Translations under genes and position numbers: made by a program | Notes under the pieces: generated by a model | Told to the model about the DNA's origin: nothing | Database searches by the model: none | The model's input: only the letters and a program-made list of their open reading frames with translations | Shown: positions 1 to 61,886 of the stretch, one piece after another | Layout of the letters: every line of letters starts with the position of its first letter | Numbering within the stretch: the first letter of the stretch is position 1 | Assembly (NCBI GenBank): GCA_035504215.1 | Contig: DATJSI010000112.1 | Coordinates: 7,461 to 71,460, forward strand | Reading direction: 5' to 3' | From: Mycobacteriales bacterium | Lineage (GTDB): Bacteria > Actinomycetota > Actinomycetes > JAFAQI01 | Length of the DNA: 64,000 bases

Positions 1-603
1 GACACGGTGATCCTCTATGGCGGCAACAACAACTGGTTCGCCGCGTACGCGTACTGGTACTTCAAGCTCTACGGGCACGACGCCGTGAAGCTGCTCGACG
101 GCGGACGCAAGAAGTGGGAGCTCGACAGCCGCGAGCTCGTCGACGAGGTGCCGCACCGCAAGGCGACGTCGTACACCGCGAAGGCGCCGAACAACGACAT
201 TCGCGCGTTCCGCGACGAGGTCATCGCGGCGATCGGTGTGAAGAACCTCGTCGACGTGCGCTCGCCGGATGAGTTCTCCGGCAAGCTGCTGGCCCCCGCG
301 CACCTGCCACAGGAGCAGTCCCAGCGGGCCGGTCACATCCCCACTGCGAGCAACATCCCGTGGAGTAAGGCGGCGAACGAGGACGGGACGTTCCGCGACG
401 ACGACGAGCTGAACCAGCTCTACACCGAAGCCGGCGTCGACCTGTCCAAGGACACGATCGCGTACTGCCGGATCGGTGAGCGCAGCGCGCACACGTGGTT
501 CGTCCTGCACGAGCTGCTCGGCCAGCCGAACGTCAAGAACTACGACGGTTCCTGGACGGAGTACGGCTCGCTGGTCGGCGTCCCGATCGAAAAGGACGTC
601 TGA
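1..603 (+). CDS. Thiosulfate sulfurtransferase (rhodanese, SseA/CysA-like), 5'-truncated by the window edge
   Basis: C-terminal rhodanese domain with the active-site 'CRIGERS' loop. The ORF runs to the window start. Confidence 0.8.
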   Translation, partial: DTVILYGGNNNWFAAYAYWYFKLYGHDAVKLLDGGRKKWELDSRELVDEVPHRKATSYTAKAPNNDIRAFRDEVIAAIGVKNLVDVRSPDEFSGKLLAPAHLPQEQSQRAGHIPTASNIPWSKAANEDGTFRDDDELNQLYTEAGVDLSKDTIAYCRIGERSAHTWFVLHELLGQPNVKNYDGSWTEYGSLVGVPIEKDV

Positions 604-6007: not shown

Positions 6008-7183
6008 GTGACCCGGACGCGCTCCTGGCAGACTGCCGTCGTGGACTTCTCCATCACCGACGAACAGCGGGCGTTTCGCGCGAGTGTCCGTGAATGGGCC
6101 GTGGCGACGGTCGCACCGGGTGCGGCCGAACGCGACCGCGAAGGCCGCTGGGATCCGGGCGTCTGGAAGTCCTTCGCCGCGCAGGGCCTCGCCGGGCTGC
6201 CGATCCCCGAGGAGTACGGCGGCGCCGGCGCGTCGATCGTGGACTGCCTGATCGCCAACGAGGCGATCGGCGAGGGCGGCCGCGACGGCGGGTTCAACCT
6301 GTCGCTCGGTGCGCACTGGGTGATCGGGTCGGTGCCGATCTGGCTGCACGGCACCGAGGAGCAGAAGCGCCGCTGGCTGCCCGGCCTCTGCGACGGCTCG
6401 CTGATCGGGGCCTGGGCGTCGACCGAGCCCGAGGCGGGTTCCGACTCGGCGGGGTTGCTGACGACCGCCGTACCGGATGGCGACAACTGGGTGCTCAACG
6501 GCAACAAGATGTTCATCACCAACGGCCCGATCGCGGACGTGTGCACCGTGCTGGCGAAGACCGGCGACAACGCGGCAAGTGCGTTCATCGTCGATACCGG
6601 TACGCCGGGCTTTCGCGTGGGACGCGAGCTGGACAAGATGGGCTGCCGATCCTCGCCGACCGCTGAGATCGCGCTGGTCGACTGCCGGGTGCCGGCGGAT
6701 GCGTTGCTCGGGACCGAAGGCACGGCGCTCTGGCAGATCGCGTTCGAGTGCTTCGACTGGGAACGCACCGTGATGATGGGCGGCGCTCTCGGCGGGATGC
6801 AGGCGACGCTCGACGCGTCGGTCGCCTATGCCAAGGAGCGCAACCAGTTCGGCCGGCCGATCGCGTCGTTCCAGGCGGTCGCGCACAAGCTCGCCGAGAT
6901 GAAGGTGCGGCTCGAGACCTGCCGAACGGCGGTCTACCGGGCGACGTACCTCAAACAAGCGGGCGCAGAGCATCAGATGGAGGCGTCGATCGCCAAGTAC
7001 CTGGTCGGGGAGCTGAGCGTGCAGAACGCCCTGGACGCGATCCAGATCCACGGCGGCTACGGCTACCTGCGTGACTTCGGCGTCGAGCGCGCGCTGCGCG
7101 ACGCGAAGCTCGGCTCGATCGGCGGCGGGACGGCCGAGATCCAGAAGCTCATCATCAGCCGGTTGCTGCTCGGTGAGCGATGA
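6008..7183 (+). CDS. Acyl-CoA dehydrogenase
   Basis: ACAD fold with the 'GGYGY' C-terminal signature. Confidence 0.9.
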   Translation: MTRTRSWQTAVVDFSITDEQRAFRASVREWAVATVAPGAAERDREGRWDPGVWKSFAAQGLAGLPIPEEYGGAGASIVDCLIANEAIGEGGRDGGFNLSLGAHWVIGSVPIWLHGTEEQKRRWLPGLCDGSLIGAWASTEPEAGSDSAGLLTTAVPDGDNWVLNGNKMFITNGPIADVCTVLAKTGDNAASAFIVDTGTPGFRVGRELDKMGCRSSPTAEIALVDCRVPADALLGTEGTALWQIAFECFDWERTVMMGGALGGMQATLDASVAYAKERNQFGRPIASFQAVAHKLAEMKVRLETCRTAVYRATYLKQAGAEHQMEASIAKYLVGELSVQNALDAIQIHGGYGYLRDFGVERALRDAKLGSIGGGTAEIQKLIISRLLLGER

Positions 7184-7686
7184 CGTACGCCGGCGACCCG
7201 ATCGGTCCGCTCAGCTTCCTGATCGGAACCTGGATGGGCGAGGGAGTGGGCGCGGTGCCGGGCGGCGGTGGCGCCGACTACCCGTACGCCGAGGTGCTGC
7301 GGATCGAGCCGGACGGCTCCTCGGTGCTCGCCTACCACTCGCAGCTCGCCTCGGTCGAGGACGGCAGCTGGCTGCACGCGGAGGCGGGCTGGCTGCGGGC
7401 GCAGGAGCCCGAGGACGGCGGGCCGGTGACCGTCGAGCTGGTGATCGCACGCCCGACCGGGGTGACGGAGGTCCTGATCGGCCACATCGTGGACGGTCCG
7501 GCCGGGTCCCATGTCGAGCTGGCGAGCGACGTGGTCGCACGGACACCCACCGCGCCCGCGATCACCGCGGACAAGCGGATGTATGCGGTGCGCGGCGGCA
7601 AGCTGCTCTACGCAATCGACCTGGCGGCCGGCGAGTCGGGACTCGCCCCGCACCTCGCGGCCGCTCTCGACCGCCACTCCGACTGA
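7180..7686 (+). CDS. FABP-family / nitrobindin-like heme-binding beta-barrel protein (DUF1794)
   Basis: N-terminal 'LSFLIGTWMGEG' motif typical of THAP4/nitrobindin-like proteins. 4-nt overlap with the upstream ACAD gene. Confidence 0.7.
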   Translation: MTYAGDPIGPLSFLIGTWMGEGVGAVPGGGGADYPYAEVLRIEPDGSSVLAYHSQLASVEDGSWLHAEAGWLRAQEPEDGGPVTVELVIARPTGVTEVLIGHIVDGPAGSHVELASDVVARTPTAPAITADKRMYAVRGGKLLYAIDLAAGESGLAPHLAAALDRHSD

Positions 7687-10105: not shown

Positions 10106-10483
10106 CCACGGCCTCGGCCGGGACAGGAAAGGCCCCCGGGCAGTAACCGGTCGCTCGCGGCGCGAGCGCGGTTGCCGGCTGGACGGGCCGGCTGCCCGGG
10201 GGCACGGTGACGGTCGGGGATTCGCCGGACGCTATGCGTCTCGGCTGGTCTCACACCGAGTCCGAAGACGGCGCCTAGCTGACGGTCACCTCACGTGTCC
10301 TGTAGGTACTCAACCGCGGACCACCTCCTTTCTCGTGTCCTGCCAGCCTAAGCCTTGCGGGCCCTGCTGCCGATGTTTTTTCTGTCGGCGCTGCGCCGGG
10401 TCAACCCCGCGCTGACCTGCACCGTCGGTGTTGGAGATGGGCTGACAAGGCGACGACGTGCGCCCTAATCTGGAGCGGCTTTC

Positions 10484-17823: not shown

Positions 17824-18492
17824 GTGTTCTTCGTGTCCATGCCTGCGCGGTCTCCTCGTCGCGCGCTTGCGTGCGCTGCCGGCGCAGTCGCGATCGCCGC
17901 CCCTGCGCTCACGACCGGCTGGGCCGGTACGGCGAACGCGGCGATCCCATCGGCGAACGGGAAGATCTACGCCTGCTACAACCCCAAGCACGGCAACCTG
18001 CGCGTGTACGCGAAGGGGCACCGGGCGGCGCACTGCCCGGCCGGGTACAAGTCGGTGAGCTGGAAGGTCAAGGGAGCCAAAGGCGCGACCGGCAAGCGGG
18101 GTGCACCCGGGAAACGCGGCGCGACCGGGAAGCGCGGCGCGAAGGGTGCCCGCGGCGCGCAAGGTGCGCAGGGCCCACAGGGCGCGCAGGGCGCGCAGGG
18201 CCCGCAAGGCGCGCAGGGCCCGCAAGGTCCGCAAGGAGCCCAAGGTCCCCAGGGTGCTTCGGGGAGTGGTATTGCGACGATCGTTGAGAACGGCGCAAGC
18301 GCGGGGACCTCGACGGCCAACTGTCCGACGGGAGACGTTGCCACCGGCGGCGGATTTAACAATGGTGCCGTGACAGCGTCGTTCCCCGTCAACGGAACTA
18401 CGTCATCGCCACCGACGGGATGGGAGGCAATCGCCGTCTCCGGCAGTGTGGTTGCGTTTGTGATCTGCGCACCGGGGGTCCCATCCGGCTAG
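17824..18492 (+). CDS. Secreted collagen-like (Gly-X-Y) triple-helix repeat protein
   Basis: Signal peptide. About 23 uninterrupted GXY triplets ([14 protein letters not shown]…GAQGPQGAQ…). A ~70-aa Gly/Thr-rich C-terminal domain. Confidence 0.7.
18070..18280 (+). repeat. Coding GXY triplet repeat (9-bp periodicity) inside the collagen-like gene
   Basis: Reiterated 'ggcgcgcagggcccgcaaggt…' units seen directly in the sequence. Confidence 0.8.
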
Positions 18493-18540: not shown

Positions 18541-19452
18541 GTGGGTAGCCCTCTGCTCGATCGTCCTGGCGCGGTGGCGGGCCGCGGGGTCGACGCATCG
18601 GTCGCCGCGCACTACGGCGACTCGTTCGGCGAGCAACGCCGGCTGATCGAGGCCGGCGCAGTCGTGGACCGGTCGCATCGCGGGGTGCTGCGCATCGACG
18701 GCGCGGACCGCTTGTCCTGGCTGCATTCGCTCACGACGCAGCACCTCGAGTCGTTGCCCGCCGGCGAGCCACGCCAGGCGCTGATCCTGTCGCCGCACGG
18801 TCATGTCGAGCATCACCTCACTCTCACCGACGACGGCGCCTCGACATGGATCACGGTCGAGCCGGAGACCGTGGCGGCGCTCACGGCGTACCTCGAGTCG
18901 ATGCGGTTCATGCTTCGGGTCGAGGTCCACGACGTCACCGTGGAGCATGCTGTGGTGTCGGTCCGCGCCGATGAGCAGTGGAAGGACCTGCTCGTGCCGC
19001 GGCCGGAGCTCGCTGCCCGGGTGGACGCGCTCGGCCTGCCGCTGGTCGGGCTCGGCGCCTACGAGGCGCTGCGGGTCGAGGCACGGGTGCCCAGGCTCGG
19101 GTTCGAGACCGACCATCGCACGATCCCGCACGAGCTCGGGTGGATCGGCGACGCCGTACATCTCGACAAAGGCTGCTACCGCGGTCAGGAGACGGTGGCG
19201 AGGGTCCACAACCTCGGCCGCCCGCCGCGGCGGCTGGTGTTCGGTCATCTCGACGGGACGAAGGACGAGCTTCCGCCACCGCATACGCCGATCGAGCTCG
19301 ACGGGCGGGTGGTCGGCTTTCTCGGTACGGCGGTCCAGCACGCCGAGCTCGGCCCGGTCGCGTTGGCCGTGATCAAGCGGCAGACGGCGGACGACGCGAT
19401 GCTCTCGGTCGCGGGAATGGCGATGAAGGCCGAACGAGTGGTCGACGCTTAG
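18541..19452 (+). CDS. ygfZ: Folate-binding YgfZ/GcvT-like protein (Fe-S cluster repair / tRNA modification)
   Basis: GcvT-like N-terminal domain and the diagnostic 'KGCYRGQE' motif. Confidence 0.85.
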   Translation: MGSPLLDRPGAVAGRGVDASVAAHYGDSFGEQRRLIEAGAVVDRSHRGVLRIDGADRLSWLHSLTTQHLESLPAGEPRQALILSPHGHVEHHLTLTDDGASTWITVEPETVAALTAYLESMRFMLRVEVHDVTVEHAVVSVRADEQWKDLLVPRPELAARVDALGLPLVGLGAYEALRVEARVPRLGFETDHRTIPHELGWIGDAVHLDKGCYRGQETVARVHNLGRPPRRLVFGHLDGTKDELPPPHTPIELDGRVVGFLGTAVQHAELGPVALAVIKRQTADDAMLSVAGMAMKAERVVDA

Positions 19453-19479: not shown

Positions 19480-22305
19480 TTAGAGGCCGAACAGCCCGAT
19501 CTTCTTCTTCTGCTTCTTCTCGGGTGCAGGCGCCGGGCGTGGCTTGTGCGCCGGCGCCGTTGCCGCCGGAACCGGCGCGGGACCGTCATCGAGGCCGAGC
19601 GAGGACAGCTCACGCAGCAACGCCGCGGTGTCGGCCTGCGCTGCTTCGTTCCACTCCTCGACGTCGTCGTCGGTGTCGTCCTCGCCCGGTGCGGGCTCAT
19701 CCTCCGCAGTGGCAGCGGCACTGTCCGTGTCGGTCTCGGGGTCGGCGTCAGCCGGTTCCTCTACTGCCTCGGGCTCAGCCTCTGCGTCGGGGGTCAGCGC
19801 AGAGGACAGCTCGACCAGCAGCGCGGTCGCCGCCGCAGCCTCGTCCGCTTGGCGCGCGGCTTCTTCGGCGGCCTGCTTCTCGGCCTTGCGGCGCGCGTTG
19901 CGCTCGGCGCGCGTCTCCGATGCCGGCGCCTCCGGCTCGGCGTCTTCGCTCGATTCGAGGTCCTCGCCGCTCGCGGCAGCAAGCTCGGCGAGGTGTTCGG
20001 CCGTGAGCTCTTCGGCGGCTTCGGCTTCGCTGCGCACGGCCTCTGCCTGCTCGGCGGCGAGCCGATCGGCTTCGGCCCGAGCCGCAGCCTCCTCGAATGC
20101 CACGCGCTCGGCGCGTACCTGCTCGGACAGCCGCTCGGCCTCGGCCTCCGCCTCCGCCAGCCGCTCGGCTTCCTCGGCGGCGAGCCGGGCCGCTTCGGCG
20201 GCCTCGGCCGCCTCCTGGGCGATCCGCTCGGCCTCGGCCAGCTCGGCGGCCAGCCGGTCAGCTTCGGCCTGCTCGGCGGCGAGCCGGGCGGCTTCCTCGC
20301 GTTCCCAGTATTCGGCCCAGGCCAGTTCTTCGAGGGCGGCGCGTTCGGCGAGTTCGGCGGCGACCCGCTCGGCTTCGGCCTGTTCGGCGGCGAGCCGGGC
20401 GGCTTCCTCGCGTTCCCAGTATTCGGCCCAGGCTTGCTCTTCGAGCGCAGCGCGCTCGGCGAGCTCGGCGGCGACCCGCTCGGCCTCGGCTTGCTCGGCG
20501 GCGAGGCGGGCGGCTTCCTCGCGCTCCCAGTATTCGGCCCAGGCTTGCTCTTCGAGGGCGGCGCGTTCGGCGAGTTCGGCGGCGATCCGCTCGGCCTCGG
20601 CTTGTTCGGCCGCGAGTCGCTCGGCCTCGGCTTGTTCGGCCGCGATCCGCTCGGCCTCAGCGGCTTCCTCGGCGGCGATCCGCTCGGCTTCGGCTTGTTC
20701 GGCCGCGATCCGCTCGGCTTCGGCTTGTTCGGCCGCGATCCGCTCGGCTTCGGCTTGTTCGGCGGCGAGTCGCTCGGCTTCGGCTTGTTCGGCGGCGAGT
20801 CGCTCGGCTTCGGCGGCTTCCTCGGCGGCGAGCCGCTCGGCTTCGGCTTGTTCGGCGGCGAGCCGCTCGGCTTCGGCCGCTTCCTCGGCGGCGATCCGCT
20901 CGGCTTCCGCCTGCTCGGCGGCCTGGCGCTCGATCTCTGCCGCCTCGTCGGCGGCCGCCTGGGCTGCCTCGGCTTCGGCCTGGTCGGCAGCGAAGTGCTC
21001 GGCGATCAACTCGGCCGGCGGCAGCCCGTCCGCCACCCGGTCGTCGACGTCCAGGTCCGCGTCGGACTCGATGACCTCGGCCGCGGCGGCCTGCTCGGCA
21101 CGCAGGGTCTCCACCATTGCCTGCGCACTGGCGAGCTCTGCGGCGGCCGCCGAACGCAGCCGCTTGCGACGCTGCCACTCGGGGTCGCTGGTCGAGCTCT
21201 TGGAGCGCTTCAGCGCAACCGCACGGTTGGCGGCGCTGTCGAGCTCCGAGGCGTCGGGGGTCTCGCCGAGAACGTCGGAAAGCGCATTCGACACCCGCGC
21301 GATCGACGCCGCGAACGACTCGCTCGTGCTGCGGTGCAGCGGCACGATCATCGGGTTGTCGAACGTCGAGGGTCCCGCGGTCTCCGGCGGCGCCAGCCCG
21401 ATCCTGGGCAGGTCGCCGTTCCCGTCGCCATTGCCGCTGTGGTCGCCGGCGACTTCGTTCACCAGCCGCGCCAGCCGGCTGAGCACGTCTTCATCCGACC
21501 CGCCGGACGCGTCGTTGTCGGACTCCTCGTCGAGCTCGCCGGACAGGGCCGAGCTCAGCGTGGTTGCGCCGTACAACGCGTCGCCGGACAGGTCCAGGTC
21601 CTCGTCGATGTCGACCAGGCCGGCCTGCACGAGCTGGACGATGACCAGACCGGCTTCGAACAGCGTGTAGCCGCAGTCGCGGGCGAGATCGGCCACCGAC
21701 CGCTCACCGTCGATCTTGCACAGCATCGACCACGCGTCGTTGTCCAGTGTCGTCTCGGAGCTGCCGGCGCCCCGGGTCGACAGCTTCGGGACCGCTGCCG
21801 GCCCGTGGACGACGGCGGAGATGTTCTCCCACTCGTAGCCACGGTTCCGCAGCGTCTCGAGCAGCTCGACCACGACCATCGGCGGGCCGACGTCTTCGCG
21901 GGCACGGATGTTCTTGCGGAACTTCCAGGTTCCTTCGGTCCAGCGCAGGAGGTCCCAGAGCGCCTCGGTGACCTGCTCGGCGACGAAAGCCTCGACCACC
22001 GGCTGGTCGACGTACCCGAGGTGGACCAGCAGCTCGCCGAGCCGCCAGCCCTGCAGCTCGCTGCGCTGGGCCTCCAGTGCCTCGGCCAGCGCCTCGGGCG
22101 CGAGCGCGCCGGAGGAGACCAGCTTGGCGCCGAGCTGCGGCCGGGTGCCCGGGACGAAGACGGAGTAGATCAGCCCGCTCTTGAAGTAGATCTGCGCTTC
22201 ATCGTTGTCCGGATTCGTCACGTGCAGGCAACCGGTGACCGAGTCGGCGGCCAGATCGCGCAGCAGGGGGGCCAGCGGCGTAGACGTCAGGTCGCCTTTG
22301 AGCAT
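19480..22305 (-). CDS. DUF4388-domain protein with a long Ala/Glu-rich tandem-repeat (coiled-coil) region and a Pro-rich, Lys-tailed C-terminus
   Basis: N-terminal 'GDLTSTPLAPLLRDLAADSVTGCLHV' matches the DUF4388 pattern. About 315 aa consist of 10-aa 'AEQAEAERIA' and ~35-aa 'ELAERAALEEQAWAEYWEREEAARLAAEQAEAERVA' tandem repeats. The protein ends '…KKQKKKIGLFGL'. Confidence 0.75.
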   Translation of the reverse strand: MLKGDLTSTPLAPLLRDLAADSVTGCLHVTNPDNDEAQIYFKSGLIYSVFVPGTRPQLGAKLVSSGALAPEALAEALEAQRSELQGWRLGELLVHLGYVDQPVVEAFVAEQVTEALWDLLRWTEGTWKFRKNIRAREDVGPPMVVVELLETLRNRGYEWENISAVVHGPAAVPKLSTRGAGSSETTLDNDAWSMLCKIDGERSVADLARDCGYTLFEAGLVIVQLVQAGLVDIDEDLDLSGDALYGATTLSSALSGELDEESDNDASGGSDEDVLSRLARLVNEVAGDHSGNGDGNGDLPRIGLAPPETAGPSTFDNPMIVPLHRSTSESFAASIARVSNALSDVLGETPDASELDSAANRAVALKRSKSSTSDPEWQRRKRLRSAAAAELASAQAMVETLRAEQAAAAEVIESDADLDVDDRVADGLPPAELIAEHFAADQAEAEAAQAAADEAAEIERQAAEQAEAERIAAEEAAEAERLAAEQAEAERLAAEEAAEAERLAAEQAEAERLAAEQAEAERIAAEQAEAERIAAEQAEAERIAAEEAAEAERIAAEQAEAERLAAEQAEAERIAAELAERAALEEQAWAEYWEREEAARLAAEQAEAERVAAELAERAALEEQAWAEYWEREEAARLAAEQAEAERVAAELAERAALEELAWAEYWEREEAARLAAEQAEADRLAAELAEAERIAQEAAEAAEAARLAAEEAERLAEAEAEAERLSEQVRAERVAFEEAAARAEADRLAAEQAEAVRSEAEAAEELTAEHLAELAAASGEDLESSEDAEPEAPASETRAERNARRKAEKQAAEEAARQADEAAAATALLVELSSALTPDAEAEPEAVEEPADADPETDTDSAAATAEDEPAPGEDDTDDDVEEWNEAAQADTAALLRELSSLGLDDGPAPVPAATAPAHKPRPAPAPEKKQKKKIGLFGL
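20090..20960. repeat. Near-perfect tandem DNA repeats (30-bp units and ~105-bp units) inside the DUF4388 gene
   Basis: Example: 'gatccgctcggcttcggcttgttcggccgc' is iterated many times between 20640 and 20900. Three ~105-bp units lie between 20280 and 20600. Confidence 0.9.
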
Positions 22306-22430
22306 GGACGACCTCCTCTACGGCCGGGCAGTGACGCTTCGGGCTACCTTCACTCCTTCGGCAGTTCAGGCGGGTGTGTTGAGCCAATTGGCGCAATCGA
22401 CCCCGCACGACTGCGCTCGGTCGTGGCACC

Positions 22431-23054
22431 ATGGCGCGGTGGCGACGCCACGGGCCAGAATTGGTGACTAAGGTCCCTCCACATTCAGACGAAGGCGCAG
22501 GCATGACACATCCGGGTGGAAACCGCCGCATCGACCGGCTCCTGGCCCCGGGATTTCTGGACGGGCTGTCCAGCGCCTCGCTCGAAGACCTGCGCACCAT
22601 GCGGGCGGACGCCGAGCAGGAGGAGACCGACCTGTCCTACCTGCGCCGGCTGCTGCAGGGCCGGCTCGACATCCTGCGGGCGGAGGCCGCGCGGCGCGCG
22701 GGCGGTGAGGAATCGGCGTCGTGGGTGGACCTGCTGCCGGGCATCCTCGCCGACGACGGGCCGCACGAGGCGCACGGCCTCGGGCACTACACCGCGGCCG
22801 AGCCCTCGCGTGCCGACCAGCACCGGCGCTACGTCGAGGCGCTCGCCGCCGACGTCTCGATGTCCGACCCCGGCGGGCTCACCGACGAGTCTCTGTCGCG
22901 CGCGATCGAGCTGTTCGAGCACGAGGAGGCCACGGTCTCGGCCAACCGCCGGGCCGTCCAGCACGTCATGGACCAGTGCACCGCGGAGATCGCTCGCCGC
23001 TACCGCGAAGGCGACGCCGATGTCGCGGACCTGCTGCCCAGCGAGTCGAGCTGA
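22431..23054 (+). CDS. rsiG: RsiG-like c-di-GMP-binding anti-sigma factor homolog (likely true start at the ATG at 22503)
   Basis: Two copies of the E(X)3S(X)2R(X)3Q(X)3D motif ('EETDLSYLRRLLQGRLD' and 'EATVSANRRAVQHVMD') in predicted helices. ~185 aa, consistent with the Streptomyces RsiG architecture. Confidence 0.65.
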   Translation: MARWRRHGPELVTKVPPHSDEGAGMTHPGGNRRIDRLLAPGFLDGLSSASLEDLRTMRADAEQEETDLSYLRRLLQGRLDILRAEAARRAGGEESASWVDLLPGILADDGPHEAHGLGHYTAAEPSRADQHRRYVEALAADVSMSDPGGLTDESLSRAIELFEHEEATVSANRRAVQHVMDQCTAEIARRYREGDADVADLLPSESS

Positions 23055-23198
23055 GCTGCGCTGAGCCACCCGACTGAGCTGCCGGTCGTCGCTGAGGTCG
23101 TCCGGGGTGGGTTCGCCGAGTCCAGGCACACCGGAAGCGTCGTTGCGCTCGCGGCGGACGGCACGGTTGCGGTCTCTCTCGGGCGGCCGGACGCCCCG

Positions 23199-24014
23199 AT
23201 GCTCCCGCGCAGCAGCCTCAAGCCGCTGCAGGCGGTCGGCATGCTTCGGGCCGGCCTCGTGGCCAGTGAGGAGCAGCTGGCGGTCGTGTGCGCCAGCCAC
23301 TCCGGCGAACCACGACACCTAGAGGTGGTTCGCGGCCTGCTCGCGTCGGTCGGGCTCGACGAGTCCGACCTGGACAACACTCCCGGCATGCCGCTCGACG
23401 CCTCGGCTCGCCGGGACCGGATCCGCGCGGGCGAAGGCCCGGCTCGGATCACCCAGAACTGCTCGGGCAAGCACGCAGGCATGCTGGCGACCTGCGTCGC
23501 CGCGGGCTGGCCGACGTCGGGTTACCGCGATCCCGACCATCCGTTGCAGATCGCGTTGCGGGCGGCGATCGAGGAGCTAGCCGGCGACGCGGTGACCGCG
23601 ACCGTCGTCGACGGTTGCGGTGCCGCGCTGTTCGCCATCACCCTGACCGGGCTCGCCCGTGCGTTCGCTCGGATCGCCACCGCCCCCGAGGCAACGCCGG
23701 AGCAGCGCTGCTTCGCGGCGATGCGTGCTCACCCGGAGTTGGTCGGTGGCACCGGACGCGACGTTTCGCGGCTGATTGCCGGCGTTCCCGGGCTGTTCGC
23801 CAAGGACGGCGCGGAGGCGGTCTACGCCGTAGGGCGCTCGGACGGCTGCGCGGTCGCGGTGAAGATCGATGACGGCGGCGAGCGCGCCCGGGTGCCGGTG
23901 CTCGTCGCCGCGCTCCGCCAGGTCGATGTCGACGCGCCCGTGCTCGCCGAGCTCGCGACCCATCCGGTTCTCGGTCACGGCCAACCGGTCGGCGAGGTGC
24001 GCGCGACCTTCTAG
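23199..24014 (+). CDS. Asparaginase_II-family (L-asparaginase II-like) protein. The annotated start is the first ATG, but the conserved N-terminus lies upstream (see findings)
   Basis: Family motifs 'RSSLKPLQA', 'CSGKHAGML' and 'DGCG'. The in-frame upstream translation 'VVAEVVRGGFAESRHTGSVVALAADG…' matches the family N-terminus. Confidence 0.75.
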   Translation: MLPRSSLKPLQAVGMLRAGLVASEEQLAVVCASHSGEPRHLEVVRGLLASVGLDESDLDNTPGMPLDASARRDRIRAGEGPARITQNCSGKHAGMLATCVAAGWPTSGYRDPDHPLQIALRAAIEELAGDAVTATVVDGCGAALFAITLTGLARAFARIATAPEATPEQRCFAAMRAHPELVGGTGRDVSRLIAGVPGLFAKDGAEAVYAVGRSDGCAVAVKIDDGGERARVPVLVAALRQVDVDAPVLAELATHPVLGHGQPVGEVRATF

Positions 24015-24079
24015 GTGGCGACGCGCGGGTGCTTGCTGGGTGCTTGCAATAGTTAGCGCAACCGCGTACGATCGGGTTC

Positions 24080-24598
24080 GTGGCAAGAATCGACGTCCGC
24101 AACCTGGGTGACTACATCCGGGAGCAGCGTTCGTCGGCGCAGATCTCGTTGCGCCAGCTGGCCACCCTCGCCGGTGTGTCGAACCCGTATCTCAGCCAGA
24201 TCGAGCGTGGCCTTCGCAAGCCGAGTGCCGAGATCCTCCAGCAGATCGCCAAGGCGCTGCGGATCTCCGCGGAAGCGCTGTACGTGCAGGCCGGGATTCT
24301 CGAGGAGCGGTACGACGACAGCGATGTACCGGCGGCGATCCTGTCCGACCGTCATCTCGCCGAGCGGCAGAAGCAGGTCCTGCTCGAGCTGTACGAGGCG
24401 TACCGCCGGGAAAGCGACGCAGCCAACACCCAGTCGGCCCGGACCCCGCCGCCTCGCGCCGGCGACGGCGAACTGCCGTCGTCCGGCGCCGGCACCCGGA
24501 CCCGGACTGCGCGGCGAGTCGGCCACTCAACCAAGACGTCGGATGCTGCGACGTCGACGAAGAAGGCGCGTACCCCAAAACCCGACGCCCGTCCCTAG
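24080..24598 (+). CDS. XRE-family HTH transcriptional regulator (Rv0474-like) with a basic, low-complexity C-terminal tail
   Basis: HTH_3 motif ('LRQLATLAGVSNPYLSQIERG'). Conserved position upstream of an hbhA-like gene. Confidence 0.8.
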   Translation: MARIDVRNLGDYIREQRSSAQISLRQLATLAGVSNPYLSQIERGLRKPSAEILQQIAKALRISAEALYVQAGILEERYDDSDVPAAILSDRHLAERQKQVLLELYEAYRRESDAANTQSARTPPPRAGDGELPSSGAGTRTRTARRVGHSTKTSDAATSTKKARTPKPDARP

Positions 24599-24697
24599 AG
24601 TCCCGACGCGTGCGGCCGCCGCTGCTCCCGCCCGCGTGACAACAACTTCATCCGCGACTGCGTGCCGACCGGCACGCTACCGATCCAGGAGGATCAG

Positions 24698-25600
24698 ATG
24701 CCTACCAAGACCACAGTCGATCCGAAGCCTCTCTACGCGATTGCCGGGGTCGGTGACCTCGCGGTCGAGCGGCTGCGCAGCCGACTCACGACGAACCCGC
24801 TGCAAATCAAGGACATCTCGGCACTCAGCACCGCCCGCCGGGCCGAGCTGCGCAAGCAGGCAAAGAGCCAGGCCGCGATGCTGCGCAAGCAGGCCGAGAC
24901 CCTTCCGGCCGACGTGCGCAAGCAGGCCGAGGAGCTGACCCACACCCTGCGCAAGCACGTCGCCACCCTGCCGGCCGACCTTCGCAAGCAGGCCGGCTCG
25001 CTGCCGACCGACTGGCGCAAGCAGCTCGACGAGCTGCCGACCGAGTGGCGCCGCCAGGTTGACGCCCTTCCGAGCGACCTGCGCAAGCAGGCCGAGGAGT
25101 TCGGCGCAGCGGTGCGCAAGCACACCGAAGACCTGACCGCCAAGGCGATCGCGGCGTACTCCGAGTTCGCCGCACGTGGCGAGAAGGTCGTCGCCGAGCT
25201 TCGTGGTGACGCTGCCGCCGCCGAGCCCGCGAGCAAGCACTCCGCGAAGTCCGCACCGAAGCCCGTGACCCGCAAGCCGGCCGAGAAGCGCGCCGCCGCG
25301 AAGAAGTCGACACCCAGCAAGACGACCGTGAAGAAGTCGACTGCGAAGAAGTCCGCCGCGAAGACCTCGTCCGCGAAGACCTCGTCCGCGAAGCACACGA
25401 CGAAGGCGAGTGCGGCGAAGGCGACAGCTACGGCGGCGGAGCACACCGGTCCGGTGCCGACGACCACCTCGGCCGTCACTCCTGAGCCTGCGACGCCGAC
25501 GGTCGTCGCCGACCTCCCGACCGTGACCGCGGCGGCGCCGGTGACCGAGCCGCACACCGCTCACCCCTCGAGCACGAACGGCCAGCACCCGACGAGCTGA
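24698..25600 (+). CDS. HbhA-like (heparin-binding hemagglutinin family) protein with a coiled-coil core and a Lys/Ala/Ser/Thr-rich C-terminal repeat tail
   Basis: N-terminal 'KPLYAIAGVGDLAVERLRSRL' resembles the HbhA N-terminus. There are 'LP.D.RKQA' heptad-like repeats and a KKS/AKKS-rich tail. A perfect AGGAGG sits 5 nt upstream of the ATG at 24698. Confidence 0.7.
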   Translation: MPTKTTVDPKPLYAIAGVGDLAVERLRSRLTTNPLQIKDISALSTARRAELRKQAKSQAAMLRKQAETLPADVRKQAEELTHTLRKHVATLPADLRKQAGSLPTDWRKQLDELPTEWRRQVDALPSDLRKQAEEFGAAVRKHTEDLTAKAIAAYSEFAARGEKVVAELRGDAAAAEPASKHSAKSAPKPVTRKPAEKRAAAKKSTPSKTTVKKSTAKKSAAKTSSAKTSSAKHTTKASAAKATATAAEHTGPVPTTTSAVTPEPATPTVVADLPTVTAAAPVTEPHTAHPSSTNGQHPTS

Positions 25601-27178: not shown

Positions 27179-27949
27179 ATGTGCGTCGTCGATCTGCGCG
27201 GTGTCGATCTGTGGTTCGCGAACGGTCCGCAGGTGCTCCATGACGTCTCCCTGCGGGTCGGCGCCGGCGAGCACTGGGCGCTGTTGGGCCCGAACGGCGC
27301 CGGCAAGTCCAGCCTGTTGTCGGTTGCGGGAGCTCAGCGGTTCCCCTCGCGCGGAACCGTGGATCTGCTCGGCCGGAGGCTCGGGTCGGTTGACGTCCGC
27401 GAGCTTCGGGCGCAGCTGGGCGTCGTCGACCAGCGGCTGCGGCTGCCACGCGAGCTGTCGGTCGCCGACTACGTCGCGACCGGCTTCACGCAGACAGTGC
27501 AGTCGATACGGACGGCGACTCCTGATCAGGAGGCTCGGGTCGGGGAGCTGGTCGACCAGATGGACCTGGGTGGGGTTGCTCGGCGTTCGATCGCGCTGTG
27601 CTCACAGGGTGAGCAGGCCCGTGCGCGACTCGCTCGGGCACTTGTCGCCGAGCCGCGACTGCTGCTGCTGGACGAGCCGGCCGCCGGGCTCGATCTCCCG
27701 GGCCGGGCGGATCTGCTCGACGCGATGGCGCGCGCGACGGTCCGCAACGACCACGCGTCGATCACCGTCGCGCATCACCTCGAGGAGCTACCGAGCACCA
27801 CGACACACGTCGCCTTGCTGCGCGGGGGACGGCTGGTGGCGGTCGGCGACACCGGACTGCTGGGTGACGAAGAAGCGCTCAGCCGGTGCTTCGGCCGGCG
27901 GGTGCGCACGGTGGCGATCGACGGACGGTGGTTCGCCGTCGCCGGCTGA
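27179..27949 (+). CDS. ABC transporter ATP-binding protein (orphan, no adjacent permease). Alternative start at 27158
   Basis: Walker A 'GPNGAGKSS', ABC signature 'CSQGEQAR', Walker B 'LLLLDEP' and an H-loop. Confidence 0.85.
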   Translation: MCVVDLRGVDLWFANGPQVLHDVSLRVGAGEHWALLGPNGAGKSSLLSVAGAQRFPSRGTVDLLGRRLGSVDVRELRAQLGVVDQRLRLPRELSVADYVATGFTQTVQSIRTATPDQEARVGELVDQMDLGGVARRSIALCSQGEQARARLARALVAEPRLLLLDEPAAGLDLPGRADLLDAMARATVRNDHASITVAHHLEELPSTTTHVALLRGGRLVAVGDTGLLGDEEALSRCFGRRVRTVAIDGRWFAVAG

Positions 27950-55419: not shown

Positions 55420-55535
55420 CGCACTCATCAAGAGGGGCAGAGGGACCGGCCCGGTGAAGCCCCGGCAACCACCCGATCGCGGGCAGGTGCCAACTCCGGC
55501 TCGGACGCGGATCGCGTCTCGGGAAAGATGAGGAC
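55420..55535 (+). promoter_or_regulatory. SAM-I (S-box) type riboswitch aptamer in the leader of the threonine-synthase-like gene
   Basis: Sequence 'CUCAUCAAGAGGGGCAGAGGGACCGGCCCGGUGAAGCCCCGGCAACC…GGUGCCAACUCCGGC…GAAAGAUGAG' matches the SAM-I consensus core. The P1 3' strand abuts the RBS GGAAGG and the ATG at 55547. Confidence 0.8.
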
Positions 55536-55546
55536 GGAAGGTTGCA

Positions 55547-56797
55547 ATGACCTCGTTGATCGACCGCCCGGCGGCGCAGTTCGGCTCCGCCGAAGCACTG
55601 GTATGCCGTGAGTGCGGTGCCACCTACCCGCTCGGGCCGACCCACGTGTGCGAGCTCTGCTTCGGTCCCCTCGAGATCGCCTACGACCCCGACGCACTGC
55701 GCGCCGTGACGCGCGCGAGTATCGAGGCCGGCCCGCAGTCAATGTGGCGCTATCGCGGTCTGCTACCGGTCGAACCACTCGTGGACCTTCGAGTCGGAAT
55801 GACCCGCCTGGTGCCGGCGCCCAACCTCGCGCGCGAGCTCGGCATGCGGTCGTTGTGGGTGAAGGACGACAGCGGCAACCCGACGCACTCGTTCAAGGAC
55901 CGAGTGGTCGCGGTGGCGGCGTCGGCCGCCCGGGCACTCGGCTACCGCGTGCTCGCCTGCGCCTCCACCGGCAACCTCGCGCACGCGGTCGCCGCCGCTG
56001 CGGCGAACGCCGGTCTGCGTTCGGTCGTCTTCATCCCCCATGACCTCGAGGCCGGCAAGTCGGTGACGACCGCGGTCTACGGCGGGACTCTGGTCGCGGT
56101 CGAAGGTTCGTACGACGAGGTCAACCGGCTGTCCGCCGAGATCGCCGGCGAGCTGCCGTGGGGCTTCGTCAACGTCAACGTCCGCCCGTTCTACGCCGAG
56201 GGCTCGAAGACGGTCGGCTTCGAGATCGCCGAACAGCTCGGTTGGCGGTTGCCCGAGCAGGTCGTCATCCCGATCGCGTCCGGCTCGTTGCTCACGAAGG
56301 TCGACAAGGCGTGGCGCGAGCTGAGCCGGCTCGGTCTCGTGGACCCGACGGCGTACCGGGTGTTCGGTGCGCAGTCGACCGGCTGCTCGCCGGTTGCGGC
56401 GGCGTTTCGTGCGGGACACGACGTGGTCGCGCCGGTGCGGCCGACCGGCATCGCGAAGTCACTCGCGATCGGCAACCCCGCCGATGGTCCCTATGCGCTG
56501 GACGTCGTGCGACGTACCGGTGGGGTGATCGAGGACGTCGGCGACACCGAAATCGTCGACGGCATCCGGCTGCTCGCGCGTACGACCGGAATATTCGGCG
56601 AGACGGCAGGTGGCGTCACGGTCGCCACTTTGCGCAAGCTGCTCGAGACCGGGCGGCTGGATCCCGAGGCCGAGACGGTCATCCTGAACACCGGTGACGG
56701 GCTGAAGACGCTGGACGCCGTTGTCGACGCCGTGGGCCCGACCGTCACGATCGCTCCGACATTGCAGGCGTTTCGAGAGGCGGGGTTGAGCGAATGA
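55547..56797 (+). CDS. Threonine-synthase-family PLP enzyme with an N-terminal Zn-ribbon (candidate MetM-type O-phosphohomoserine-dependent homocysteine synthase)
   Basis: 'CRECG…CELC' zinc ribbon. PLP-lysine motif 'HSFKDR'. ThrC fold. Preceded by a SAM riboswitch and followed by a sulfur-carrier gene. Confidence 0.8.
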   Translation: MTSLIDRPAAQFGSAEALVCRECGATYPLGPTHVCELCFGPLEIAYDPDALRAVTRASIEAGPQSMWRYRGLLPVEPLVDLRVGMTRLVPAPNLARELGMRSLWVKDDSGNPTHSFKDRVVAVAASAARALGYRVLACASTGNLAHAVAAAAANAGLRSVVFIPHDLEAGKSVTTAVYGGTLVAVEGSYDEVNRLSAEIAGELPWGFVNVNVRPFYAEGSKTVGFEIAEQLGWRLPEQVVIPIASGSLLTKVDKAWRELSRLGLVDPTAYRVFGAQSTGCSPVAAAFRAGHDVVAPVRPTGIAKSLAIGNPADGPYALDVVRRTGGVIEDVGDTEIVDGIRLLARTTGIFGETAGGVTVATLRKLLETGRLDPEAETVILNTGDGLKTLDAVVDAVGPTVTIAPTLQAFREAGLSE

Positions 56798-57069
56798 TCA
56801 CCGTGCGGGTTCCGACCATTTTGCGGTCGCTCACCGGCGGCGCGGCCGAGGTGTCCGTCGACGAGGCGTCGACCCTGGCCGACGTACTGGACCGGATGGA
56901 GGCCGAGCACCCCGGCTTCCGCACCCGCGTCCTCGACGACGACGGCAAGCTGCGCCGGTTCGTGAATGTCTATGTCGACGACGACGATGTGCGTTTCGCC
57001 GAGGGGTTGCAGACACCGACGCCCGCTGGAACTACCGTCTCGATCATCCCAGCGGTCGCCGGCGGCTGA
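56794..57069 (+). CDS. MoaD/ThiS-family sulfur-carrier protein (C-terminal Gly-Gly). Candidate MetO/CysO-like
   Basis: 91 aa ending '…IIPAVAGG'. 4-nt overlap with the upstream ThrC-like gene. Confidence 0.7.
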   Translation: MITVRVPTILRSLTGGAAEVSVDEASTLADVLDRMEAEHPGFRTRVLDDDGKLRRFVNVYVDDDDVRFAEGLQTPTPAGTTVSIIPAVAGG

Positions 57070-57085: not shown

Positions 57086-57661
57086 CTACTTGCTGGACTT
57101 CTTCGACAGGCGGAACACCTGGGCGTAGACCAGATGCGCCTTGTAGATGTGCTGGCGCTGCACGTGGGTGCCGGTGTGCGGCGCCACCCACCAGTAGTCG
57201 TGCCCGTCATAGATGCCGACATGCGAGACGTAGCCGTTGTCGACGAAGACCAGGTCGCCCGGCTTGAGGTGGCGGCGGCGGATGTGGTGCAACGAGTGGT
57301 ACTGCTCCGCGGCGTTGTGCGGCAGCGAGATGTGGACTGCGTGCAGAAACACGAAGCGGACCAGGCCGGAGCAGTCGAAGGCATGCGGGCCGTCGGCGCC
57401 GTACTGGTAGGGCTTGCCCTTCTGGCGGGCGGCTTCGCGCAGCACCCGGCGTACGTCGTTGTGGAGCTGCGTGAGGGTCATCGCACCGGTCGCACGCGCC
57501 GGGGCGGCATGCGGCGCGGTAGCGGCCAGCGGGGTCGTGGTGCTGGAGCCGGGCTCGGCGTTCTGGGTCTGCGCGAACGCGGGGCTCGCGGCCAGGCCGA
57601 GGCAGAGGAACAGGGATGCGGCGAGGATGCCCAAGCGGGCAGACAGGGTCGCACGGAACAT
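57086..57661 (-). CDS. Secreted NlpC/P60-family peptidoglycan hydrolase
   Basis: Signal peptide. 'PYQYGADGPHAFDCSGL' and 'GDLVF…SHVGIY' catalytic Cys/His regions. Confidence 0.85.
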   Translation of the reverse strand: MFRATLSARLGILAASLFLCLGLAASPAFAQTQNAEPGSSTTTPLAATAPHAAPARATGAMTLTQLHNDVRRVLREAARQKGKPYQYGADGPHAFDCSGLVRFVFLHAVHISLPHNAAEQYHSLHHIRRRHLKPGDLVFVDNGYVSHVGIYDGHDYWWVAPHTGTHVQRQHIYKAHLVYAQVFRLSKKSSK

Positions 57662-57975
57662 GAAGGCGCTCTCCGACGCCGACCGGGTTAGCTGTCGGGT
57701 TCGGACCGTGGCTAGCCCGGCCGCCGGAGCGGCTTCACCCCAAGAGCGCGTGCCCCGCGCTCGTGTGCTGTTGGGTCCCCGATCCTGTCCGTGGGTTCGG
57801 TGTACGCACTCCGCGGACAGGTTTGGCGAACGGAGGCGACGGTCACCCGGCTGGGTGGCCCCGCATACCTTAGGTCGGCGTCCGGCCCGCCGTCCTTGAA
57901 TCCGGGATTTTTTCCGGGCGTGTCCGGTTTACCCGCCGGTCGCCCGCGGGAGCCGGCCTCGACGCCGGCGGCCGT

Positions 57976-60342: not shown

Positions 60343-61635
60343 GTGGGGTTGGGTGATGGGCCGGTGGGAGGTCGAACGGTGTCCATGAAGGATCTGCTCG
60401 TGACCTGGGACGGGCTGGCACGGGCGGCGGCGGTGGAAGCATTTCCGCCGGTGGATGCCGTAGTGGAGCGCGGCACGGTGCTGTGCGATCCGGCGTCCGA
60501 GGCTGAGCTGGTCGCGGCAGAGGAGCGGCTGGGCCAGCGGCTTCCCCGTTCATACCGGCAGTTCCTGGCCTGTTCGAATGGCGCTCACGCCGGGGTCAAC
60601 GGTTTGGTGACACAGGCGGAGTCGGCTGCGTCTGACCGGCCGACGGCTAGTTACGGCTTGTACCCGGTCCAGCTCGTGCTGCCGTTCGCGCAGGCTCAGC
60701 CCGATCTGTTCGAACTGTGGGCTGATACGGACTTCGGCGATCCGATCACGGCCGACGGGGAGGAGGTCGCGGATTACACCGCCTTGGATGGACGGTCATT
60801 GCTGATCGGAAGCGATTCTGAGTGGCCGACGGTACTGGTCAAGGTCGGGCGCACCGGTGACTGGCAGTTGTGGCAGTTCGCTAAGGAGGGGGCAGTCGGG
60901 TACTTCTCGTTCGGTTCCTGGCTGCGATCGGAGACCGAGGCAGCTCGAGCATCGATGGTCTCAGAGCTGATCGAGCGGTGCAGCGCTGGCGACCTGAAGG
61001 CATTGGGTGAGCTGAAGAAGGTACGCGACTCAGACGCACTTCCCCAGCTGACTGCTGCGCTGCAAGTCGGCGGACAGGTGACCACCGCTGCCATCGAGGC
61101 GCTCGGGCGGATCGGTGGTGAGCCTGCCGCTCGGGCGCTCGCTCCGTTCCTTGATCCCGACGCCCTCTACGAATACAGCCAAGAGATCGGCCAAAGTTAT
61201 CGGAATCGCAAACGCCCCCCCGGTGTCGATCCGGATTGGCACAGGACAGCGCAGGATGCATTAGTCCGGATGCGACTGGCAGCAGCCGACGACGTCCTTG
61301 CCGCCTATGACTGCGCGCACGGCCTGGCGTTGCGCCGCGACCACCGGGCGGCGGAGATCGTGTTCCGACGGGAGTTCAAGCCACCGATGTTCATCGGCGC
61401 AAACGAACTTGGTCTGCTCGGCGATCCACGCTACGTCCCGCAACTACGCGCAGCCGTTCCACTCGCCGACAAACGCCGCGTCTACTACCTTCACCTCGCC
61501 CGGTGGTCGTGTGGGGACCCCGAAGTCATCGACGACCTCTGCAAGATCGCCGACGACCCCGCCGTCAGCCCTGGCCGCCGCCACCAGGCTGGATTCCTCG
61601 TCGAACGGGAAGCACGCGAACGCCGCTTCACCTAA
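60343..61635 (+). CDS. SMI1/KNR4 (SUKH-1) domain protein fused to HEAT-like repeats
   Basis: 'LPRSYRQFLACSNG' SMI1/KNR4 signature. Central 'ALGELKK…ALPQLTAALQ…AAIEALGRIGGEPAARALAPFLDPD' HEAT/PBS-lyase-like repeats. The start may be the ATG at 60385. Confidence 0.6.
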   Translation: MGLGDGPVGGRTVSMKDLLVTWDGLARAAAVEAFPPVDAVVERGTVLCDPASEAELVAAEERLGQRLPRSYRQFLACSNGAHAGVNGLVTQAESAASDRPTASYGLYPVQLVLPFAQAQPDLFELWADTDFGDPITADGEEVADYTALDGRSLLIGSDSEWPTVLVKVGRTGDWQLWQFAKEGAVGYFSFGSWLRSETEAARASMVSELIERCSAGDLKALGELKKVRDSDALPQLTAALQVGGQVTTAAIEALGRIGGEPAARALAPFLDPDALYEYSQEIGQSYRNRKRPPGVDPDWHRTAQDALVRMRLAAADDVLAAYDCAHGLALRRDHRAAEIVFRREFKPPMFIGANELGLLGDPRYVPQLRAAVPLADKRRVYYLHLARWSCGDPEVIDDLCKIADDPAVSPGRRHQAGFLVEREARERRFT

Positions 61636-61886
61636 CACGCGGCGTCAACACGTGGCCGGCCACAGCCGAACACCAGTCGCACAGCTCCGGGGCTGTTCGG
61701 GACGGCAATTCGGGTCGATGTCGTCGGGCGCCGGAGTTGTTGAACTCACCGGATCGCACGCTCGTCAGTGCCACAGCGCAAACATGACTCGCCGGTAACC
61801 AATCGCCTACCTCGATGGGCAAGTGCAACACCGTCATTCGTGGACGTACCAGGTTTACCTCGGTCGCGCGGAGTTAACGTGGGCTT

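Follow-up and report, generated by a model that had tools for sequence, protein, structure and literature searches.

The window analysed here is a single stretch of DNA of 64,000 nucleotides (64 kb). On its forward strand it carries an rsiG gene, flanked by a divergently transcribed PATAN/DUF4388 gene and an asparaginase II gene (Table 1). The longest open reading frame (ORF) at the locus spans 22431–23054 (+) and would encode 207 aa. The real start of rsiG is most likely the ATG at 22503 rather than that at 22431, because a Shine–Dalgarno sequence (GAAGG) is located 7 nt upstream of this codon, the resulting 183-aa product is the exact gene call on three public metagenome contigs (ENA/Logan), and the consensus N-terminus of RsiG homologues (MTxPxGNRRIDR) aligns with MTHPGGNRR of the window protein. 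An exact-sequence look-up returned no record of the 207-aa form; as the 183-aa form is on record, this is evidence against a start at 22431. The length of ~185 aa given in the original prediction thus fits the shorter product, whereas the start that it placed at 22431 is less likely than ATG 22503. The GC3 value of the rsiG frame, 0.88, is usual for real genes in this window (~70% GC).

A short element, TGnCA(C/G)(C/G)AT, occurs 43–77 nt 5' of rsiG in the window and in eight to nine related loci. We regard the window copy, TGGCACCAT, as a putative rsiG promoter. Its overlap with the upstream ATG agrees with 22503 as the real start of the gene. A scan of 22200–24700 for sigma-70 promoters and terminators found none.

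Table 1. Features of the rsiG locus and its upstream landmarks (window coordinates; residue numbers refer to the 183-aa RsiG).
Feature	Position	Strand	Description
Rhodanese gene	1-603		Upstream landmark of rsiG
THAP4 haem-binding gene	7180-7686		Upstream landmark of rsiG
GCV_T gene	18541-19452		Upstream landmark, followed by the PATAN gene and rsiG
PATAN/DUF4388 gene	19480..22305	-	941 aa, divergent from rsiG; N-terminal domain matches Pfam PF14332 at 5.6e-17
Sigma-28/WhiG-type promoter, TCAA-N16-GCCGAAGG	about 22355-22382	-	-10 element ends 49 nt 5' of the PATAN ATG
Candidate rsiG promoter, extended -10-like, TGGCACCAT	22424..22432	+	70 nt 5' of ATG 22503; overlaps ATG 22431
rsiG CDS	22503..23054	+	183 aa plus stop; likely start ATG 22503
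Predicted long helix alpha1, first coiled-coil arm	22581..22700	+	Residues 27-66; AF2 pLDDT ~90; superposes on 6PFV/6PFJ chains
c-di-GMP motif 1, ETDLSYLRRLLQGRLD	22623..22670	+	E41 S45 R48 Q52 D56; in predicted helix alpha1; equivalent to RsiGSv residues 64-79
Flexible loop	22752..22811	+	Residues 84-103; equivalent to the c-di-GMP-wrapping loop of RsiGSv; pLDDT <50; carries H95-Y96
Predicted long helix alpha5, second coiled-coil arm	22884..23006	+	Residues 128-168; AF2 pLDDT 91-96
c-di-GMP motif 2, EATVSANRRAVQHVMD	22926..22973	+	E142 S146 R149 Q153 D157; in predicted helix alpha5; equivalent to RsiGSv residues 162-177
Asparaginase II gene	23055..24014	+	Directly 3' of rsiG; Pfam PF06089 at 1.4e-95

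The rsiG product matched the Pfam family PF22802 (RsiG) with an E-value of 3.8e-35 and a score of 119.8 bits, the cut-off being 27. The match comprised two stretches, one for each half. In the PDB, phmmer aligned residues 38–202 of the long ORF with residues 14–175 of chain 6pfj_T, the Streptomyces venezuelae RsiG, at an E-value of 1.1e-29. BLASTP gave 42% identity to the S. venezuelae protein (P0121) over 177 residues. The single-motif Rubrobacter RsiG structures (7LQ2–7LQ4) were also found (E ~1e-9), matching alpha1 of the window protein. Homologue searches at E <= 1e-3 returned 2888 sequences with the window protein as query and 3062 with the S. venezuelae sequence; their source names include 'RsiG family protein', 'aerial mycelium formation protein' and 'anti-sigma-K factor RsiG'. 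NCBIfam contained no match to the window protein, so the name RsiG rests on Pfam and the PDB. Judged by its sequence, the product of 22503–23054 is a clear member of the family and an orthologue of Streptomyces RsiG (formerly AmfC). Among the matches listed, many Streptomyces RsiG orthologues bear the NCBI label 'ABC transporter substrate-binding protein', which is a propagated misannotation.

Both c-di-GMP motifs are exact copies of E-x3-S-x2-R-x3-Q-x3-D (residues 41–56 and 142–157). A six-frame search with a regular expression found exactly two matches in the entire 64-kb window, both inside the rsiG ORF, where chance predicts 0.14 matches from the composition of the six frames and 0.0009 for each protein composed like this one. 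None of the ten motif residues varies among the 71 aligned homologues, a set made up of Frankiales-type and Streptomyces members. The two claims from which this work started, homology to RsiG and two perfect motif copies, are hence borne out. The transcription of motif 1 as 'E-ETDL-S' had one residue too many; read from the second Glu (E-TDL-S), the motif is exact.

An AlphaFold2 (AF2) model built on the 71-sequence alignment (mean pLDDT 77, pTM 0.70) consists of helices, two of 40 residues and some short bracing ones, and of a disordered loop (84–103). An antiparallel coiled coil is predicted in this model, with alpha1 and alpha5 as its arms. A Foldseek search of the PDB with the model returned four significant matches, all of them RsiG chains of 6PFV and 6PFJ (TM 0.67–0.80, probability 1.00); the next match had E=1. 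Aligned in motif register, alpha1 and alpha5 are identical at 15 of 40 positions (37.5%), within the 33–40% reported for the RsiG family (PMC8325347). The register alignment was used because the segments were too short for BLASTP, which produced no alignment of the two helices. This likeness beyond the motif agrees with the duplication within the gene that has been reported for this family.

Gallagher et al. identified 14 residues of S. venezuelae RsiG (RsiGSv) that contact WhiG (PMC7005675). Mapped via alignments, 11 of these 14 are identical in the window protein: RsiGSv R54, R57, Y69, I80, L99, V138, D142, I183, Y187, L197 and L198 correspond, in this order, to R31, R34, Y46, I57, L78, V118, D122, I163, Y167, L177 and L178. 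The changed positions are R58, V95 and L143, which are A35, W74 and P123 in the window protein. W74 stands at a position where Leu or Val is usual.

The loop that wraps c-di-GMP in RsiGSv is poorly conserved. It contains a near-universal Arg-His pair, present in 69 of the 71 sampled homologues, whereas the window protein has His-Tyr (H95-Y96, 22785–22790), shared with only one other sampled homologue, a metagenomic relative of 93% identity. H95-Y96 is the one conspicuous trait of the window RsiG.

The nearest genomes are metagenome-assembled genomes (MAGs), with identities not exceeding 79%, that carry the labels uncultured Frankiaceae, Frankiales, Mycobacteriales or Actinomycetota; more distant matches fall in the Acidothermaceae and Sporichthyaceae. 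Judging by these matches, the window comes from an uncultured actinobacterium of the Frankiaceae/Mycobacteriales type. Together with an identity of only 42% to S. venezuelae RsiG, this upholds the earlier statement that the organism is probably not a streptomycete. The window is a conserved core region of actinobacteria, with genes for sulfate activation, dTDP-rhamnose synthesis, an mshA-like glycosyltransferase (GT4), an MDMPI-domain protein and a SpoU-family methylase, and with carD, ispF, cysS and groEL; a DUF3263 gene is present too. Both the nearest genomes and the gene content of the window are actinobacterial, in agreement with the confinement of RsiG to the Actinobacteria (Actinomycetota).

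The position of rsiG was compared with that in S. venezuelae. There, the order is Rhodanese ... THAP4 haem-binding ... FUR, GCV_T, dtd and rsiG (locus L004), and in several related MAGs GCV_T lies immediately 5' of rsiG (L016, L017, L019). As the same upstream landmark genes precede rsiG in the window, the gene is at the orthologous chromosomal position and not in a new context. The original prediction had read the lack of an adjacent whiG as a sign of a different context. This reading does not hold, since rsiG and whiG are ~1.5 Mbp apart in the type organism itself (PMC7005675). Nor is the protein new in kind, as had been implied, because a Pfam family exists and twin-motif RsiGs were catalogued in 130 actinobacterial genomes in 2021.

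Downstream, the order rsiG–asparaginase II–HTH recurs in most related loci. With no terminator-like site between them, the asparaginase II gene is probably co-transcribed with rsiG. Its N-terminal homology (ELPVVAEVVRGGFAESRHTGSVVALAADG) begins straight from the rsiG TGA in the same frame (23055–23198, +), and the ORF itself spans 23199–24014. Before 23199 this reading frame contains no ATG, GTG or TTG, only CTG codons at 23061 and 23079. Relatives start the enzyme at the GTG of the PVV position, which is GTC in the window. The window gene could therefore have a CTG start, encode an N-terminally truncated enzyme or be expressed by stop-codon read-through.

The protein encoded on the other side of rsiG has a long Ala/Glu-rich coiled-coil repeat region after its N-terminal PATAN/DUF4388 domain. 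Orthologues adjoin rsiG or lie near it in 18 related loci. The protein ends in a conserved basic C-terminal tail (KKQKKKIGLFGL), and its gene contains tandem DNA repeats of 30 and 111 nt (AEQAEAERIAAE units) at 20234–20922. Even where relatives are nearly identical, the called lengths differ greatly, with 325 aa in L005 and 936 aa in L006, suggesting variation in repeat length or collapse during assembly.

In the 197 bp that separate rsiG from the PATAN gene lies a promoter motif of the sigma-28/WhiG type. The published WhiG consensus is T(A/C)AA-N16-GCCGA (PMC12871210). The window contains 5 matches to this consensus against 0.54 expected, and none of 100 shuffled sequences reached 5; the match between rsiG and the PATAN gene spans 22358–22382 (-). 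In the form GGCTCAAC-N15-TGCCGAAGG, with a variable spacer, the motif is kept upstream of PATAN orthologues: GGCTCAAC-N15-TGCCGA(A/T)G is located 37–70 nt 5' of the orthologue in related loci, and the loci with the promoter are L007, L009–L015, L018, L020, L025, L031, L032 and L034. In an alignment of these promoters (A2), GGCT.A and TGCCGA are invariant, while the spacer sequence varies. A search of both strands of 28 non-redundant related loci (321 kb) gave 15 exact matches, 12 of which precede a PATAN orthologue by <150 nt and share its strand; two more related loci carry one-mismatch TTAA variants.

Even at loci with rsiG at a distance of 1–2 kb (L011–L013, L018, L025), the motif accompanies the PATAN gene, and it is therefore a promoter of the PATAN gene and not an rsiG element. 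For the same reason, GGCTCAAC was dropped as a candidate -35 element of rsiG (TTGAGC on the other strand). The conserved promoter provides good indirect evidence for a FliA/WhiG-family sigma factor at work in the lineage and would thus also mark an active sigma factor of this type in these genomes.

This arrangement raises the possibility, which we put forward tentatively and consider rather doubtful, that in this Frankiales-type lineage rsiG stands head-to-head with a PATAN gene transcribed by the very sigma factor that RsiG controls. If true, the PATAN gene would be a new output of the RsiG switch, and its promoter a concrete candidate output in non-sporulating actinobacteria. In Synechocystis, PATAN domains bind to the motor of type IV pili (bioRxiv 10.1101/2021.06.11.447907), and for several families of actinobacteria such pili have been predicted as WhiG outputs. 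We found no mention of DUF4388 together with WhiG in the literature. However, the PATAN promoter also fits the consensus of WhiG1, CTCA-N17-GCCGAA, and WhiG1 is not controlled by RsiG (PMC12871210), so that a functional link between rsiG and the PATAN gene is only hypothetical.

Exact matches to TCAA-N16-GCCGA also occur elsewhere in the window. Those at 27369–27393 (-) and 56175–56199 (+) are within coding regions, and that at 61645–61669 (+) lies just after a SUKH-family gene (60343–61635). Another, at 57875–57899 (-), is located 63 nt upstream of a c-di-AMP (ydaO-type) riboswitch (57662–57812, -, 61.6 bits), which leads the gene of an NlpC/P60 peptidoglycan hydrolase (57086–57661, -). The sole informative relative of this locus from a metagenome scan, L035, has TTCAAGG-N-GTCGA at the same position. 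The two sequences suggest that a sigma-28-type promoter may drive a riboswitch-controlled cell-wall hydrolase.

Several further elements were observed in the window. A SAM riboswitch (55422–55534, +, 81 bits) is located directly 5' of the gene for a PLP-dependent enzyme (55547–56797), which is followed by a ThiS-family sulfur-carrier gene (56794–57069). The actinobacterial sRNA Ms_IGR-5 (Rfam RF02471) was detected at 10124–10338 (-, 90.9 bits), between NlpC/P60-PG_binding and sugar transferase genes. A 222-aa ORF at 17824–18492 (+) matches collagen triple-helix repeats with an E-value of 3e-10, and no ORF in this region passed the GC3 gene filter; it may encode a real Gly-X-Y repeat protein or be a GC-rich artefact.

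We consider it very likely that the window protein acts as RsiG does, sequestering, when loaded with c-di-GMP, a WhiG2-clade sigma factor whose gene would be located elsewhere on the genome. By homology, helices alpha1 and alpha5 of the monomer would pack into an antiparallel coiled coil, which would take up a c-di-GMP dimer via both motifs. Loaded RsiG would then grip a WhiG2-clade sigma factor of the FliA/sigma-28 family by its sigma2 and sigma4 domains and keep it from RNA polymerase, until a drop in c-di-GMP frees it. The ligand, the presence and identity of the sigma partner and the nature of the regulon are what we infer by analogy with characterised RsiGs. Pfam scans of ~60 ORFs across the 64-kb window detected no sigma-70-family genes, WhiG/FliA included, and no GGDEF, EAL or HD-GYP genes. 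According to Denis et al. (2026), a WhiG homologue invariably accompanies RsiG, and the clade with which RsiG pairs is WhiG2, as judged by a Mantel correlation across 673 genomes (r = 0.88) and by BACTH for Geodermatophilus obscurus (PMC12871210).

Three other explanations were weighed against this proposal. High-GC DNA gives rise to many long spurious ORFs, several of which overlap the rsiG locus, and the motifs might have arisen by chance in such an ORF or in an unrelated Arg/Glu-rich helical protein. The GC3 value of the rsiG frame argues against this, as do Pfam, PDB and fold matches that are specific to RsiG, a family of thousands of homologues whose motif residues do not vary and the minute number of motifs expected in a protein of this composition. 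The combined Pfam, PDB, alignment and fold evidence rules out a chance origin, whose probability we regard as practically nil. A genuine orthologue could instead have lost c-di-GMP control in whole or in part and act as a constitutive or insensitive anti-sigma factor. The change from Arg-His to His-Tyr in the loop affects the equivalent of Arg115, which stacks on c-di-GMP in RsiGSv (PMC7005675), and is what speaks for such a loss. Against it, all ten primary motif residues, the source of base specificity and of most contacts, are intact; His can also stack on guanine, and a Q-to-H exchange in the motif has been accepted on the same reasoning (PMC8325347); and single-motif RsiGs bind c-di-GMP without any loop (PMC8325347). 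We therefore judge a loss of control to be highly unlikely. Because His can stack on guanine and the loop-less single-motif proteins work, H95-Y96 is possibly a modifier of affinity rather than a loss of function. If the exchange matters, the c-di-GMP sensitivity of RsiG could be retuned.

It is also conceivable, if very improbable, that the protein is a repurposed RsiG-family c-di-GMP receptor that holds a different partner, be it a sigma factor of another kind or a protein that is not a sigma factor, for instance the neighbouring PATAN protein. This reading corresponds to the different context suggested in the original prediction. The absence of whiG from the window, the altered loop together with the three changed sigma-contact residues, and the head-to-head linkage to the PATAN gene in many related loci are all compatible with such a role. 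However, a distant whiG is the norm, as the S. venezuelae chromosome illustrates, and the WhiG contacts retained in the window protein are for the most part invariant family-wide. The correlated presence of RsiG and WhiG2 across genomes likewise favours the canonical partner. Moreover, rsiG is kept at loci where the PATAN gene is absent or separated from it (L016, L017, L019, L021–L024), and the PATAN protein is therefore not an obligate partner of RsiG.

The best-studied counterpart is the S. venezuelae RsiG (Vnz19430, formerly AmfC; 6PFJ/6PFV), with which the window protein can be aligned over its full length (42% identity, E 1e-29). Both motifs are at equivalent positions, the predicted fold is alike (TM 0.67–0.80) and 11 of the 14 WhiG contacts are identical. 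In both organisms, Rhodanese, THAP4 haem-binding and GCV_T genes are found upstream; rsiG is unlinked to whiG in S. venezuelae, and no whiG lies within the window either. The immediate neighbours differ, being the PATAN and asparaginase II genes in the window and dtd and an acetyltransferase gene in S. venezuelae. The N-terminal tail of the window protein is shorter (183 aa in total, compared with about 199–215 aa), its loop has His-Tyr in place of Arg115-His116, and A, W and P stand where RsiGSv has R58, V95 and L143. Unlike S. venezuelae, the host is not a sporulating streptomycete, and its RsiG regulon is probably different.

Another counterpart, from among the twin-motif homologues of other actinobacteria, is the WhiG2-paired RsiG of Geodermatophilus obscurus, which is, like that of the window, a monomeric two-motif protein from outside Streptomyces; a WhiG2-clade partner would be expected in both cases (PMC8325347; PMC12871210). 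In non-Streptomyces taxa with twin-motif RsiGs, the predicted regulons include motility, type IV pili and c-di-GMP enzymes, and not whiH or whiI (PMC8325347; PMC12871210). The single-motif RsiGs of Rubrobacter and the Thermoleophilia (7LQ2–7LQ4) contain the same motif and helix as alpha1 of the window protein. However, they are only about 85–118 aa long, lack the loop and dimerise into a coiled coil, whereas in the window protein a single chain bears both motifs. FlgM, the classical anti-sigma-28 factor, shares with RsiG the FliA/sigma-28 target family but is unrelated to it in fold and sequence and independent of c-di-GMP (PMC7005675); the window protein is not a FlgM.

Schumacher et al. (2021) recorded 135 RsiG homologues in 673 actinobacterial reference genomes, 130 of them with twin motifs (PMC8325347). 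RsiG was present in 62 of 62 Streptomycetaceae, 16 of 16 Geodermatophilaceae and 39 of 46 Pseudonocardiaceae, with a scattered distribution in other families (PMC8325347). The genomes listed in their Table S1 include Acidothermaceae and Cryptosporangiaceae and no Frankia (PMC8325347), and the lineage of uncultured Frankiaceae/Mycobacteriales MAGs to which the window belongs falls outside that survey of reference genomes. The rsiG gene of the window is a further member, from an unsurveyed uncultured lineage, of the well-described RsiG family.
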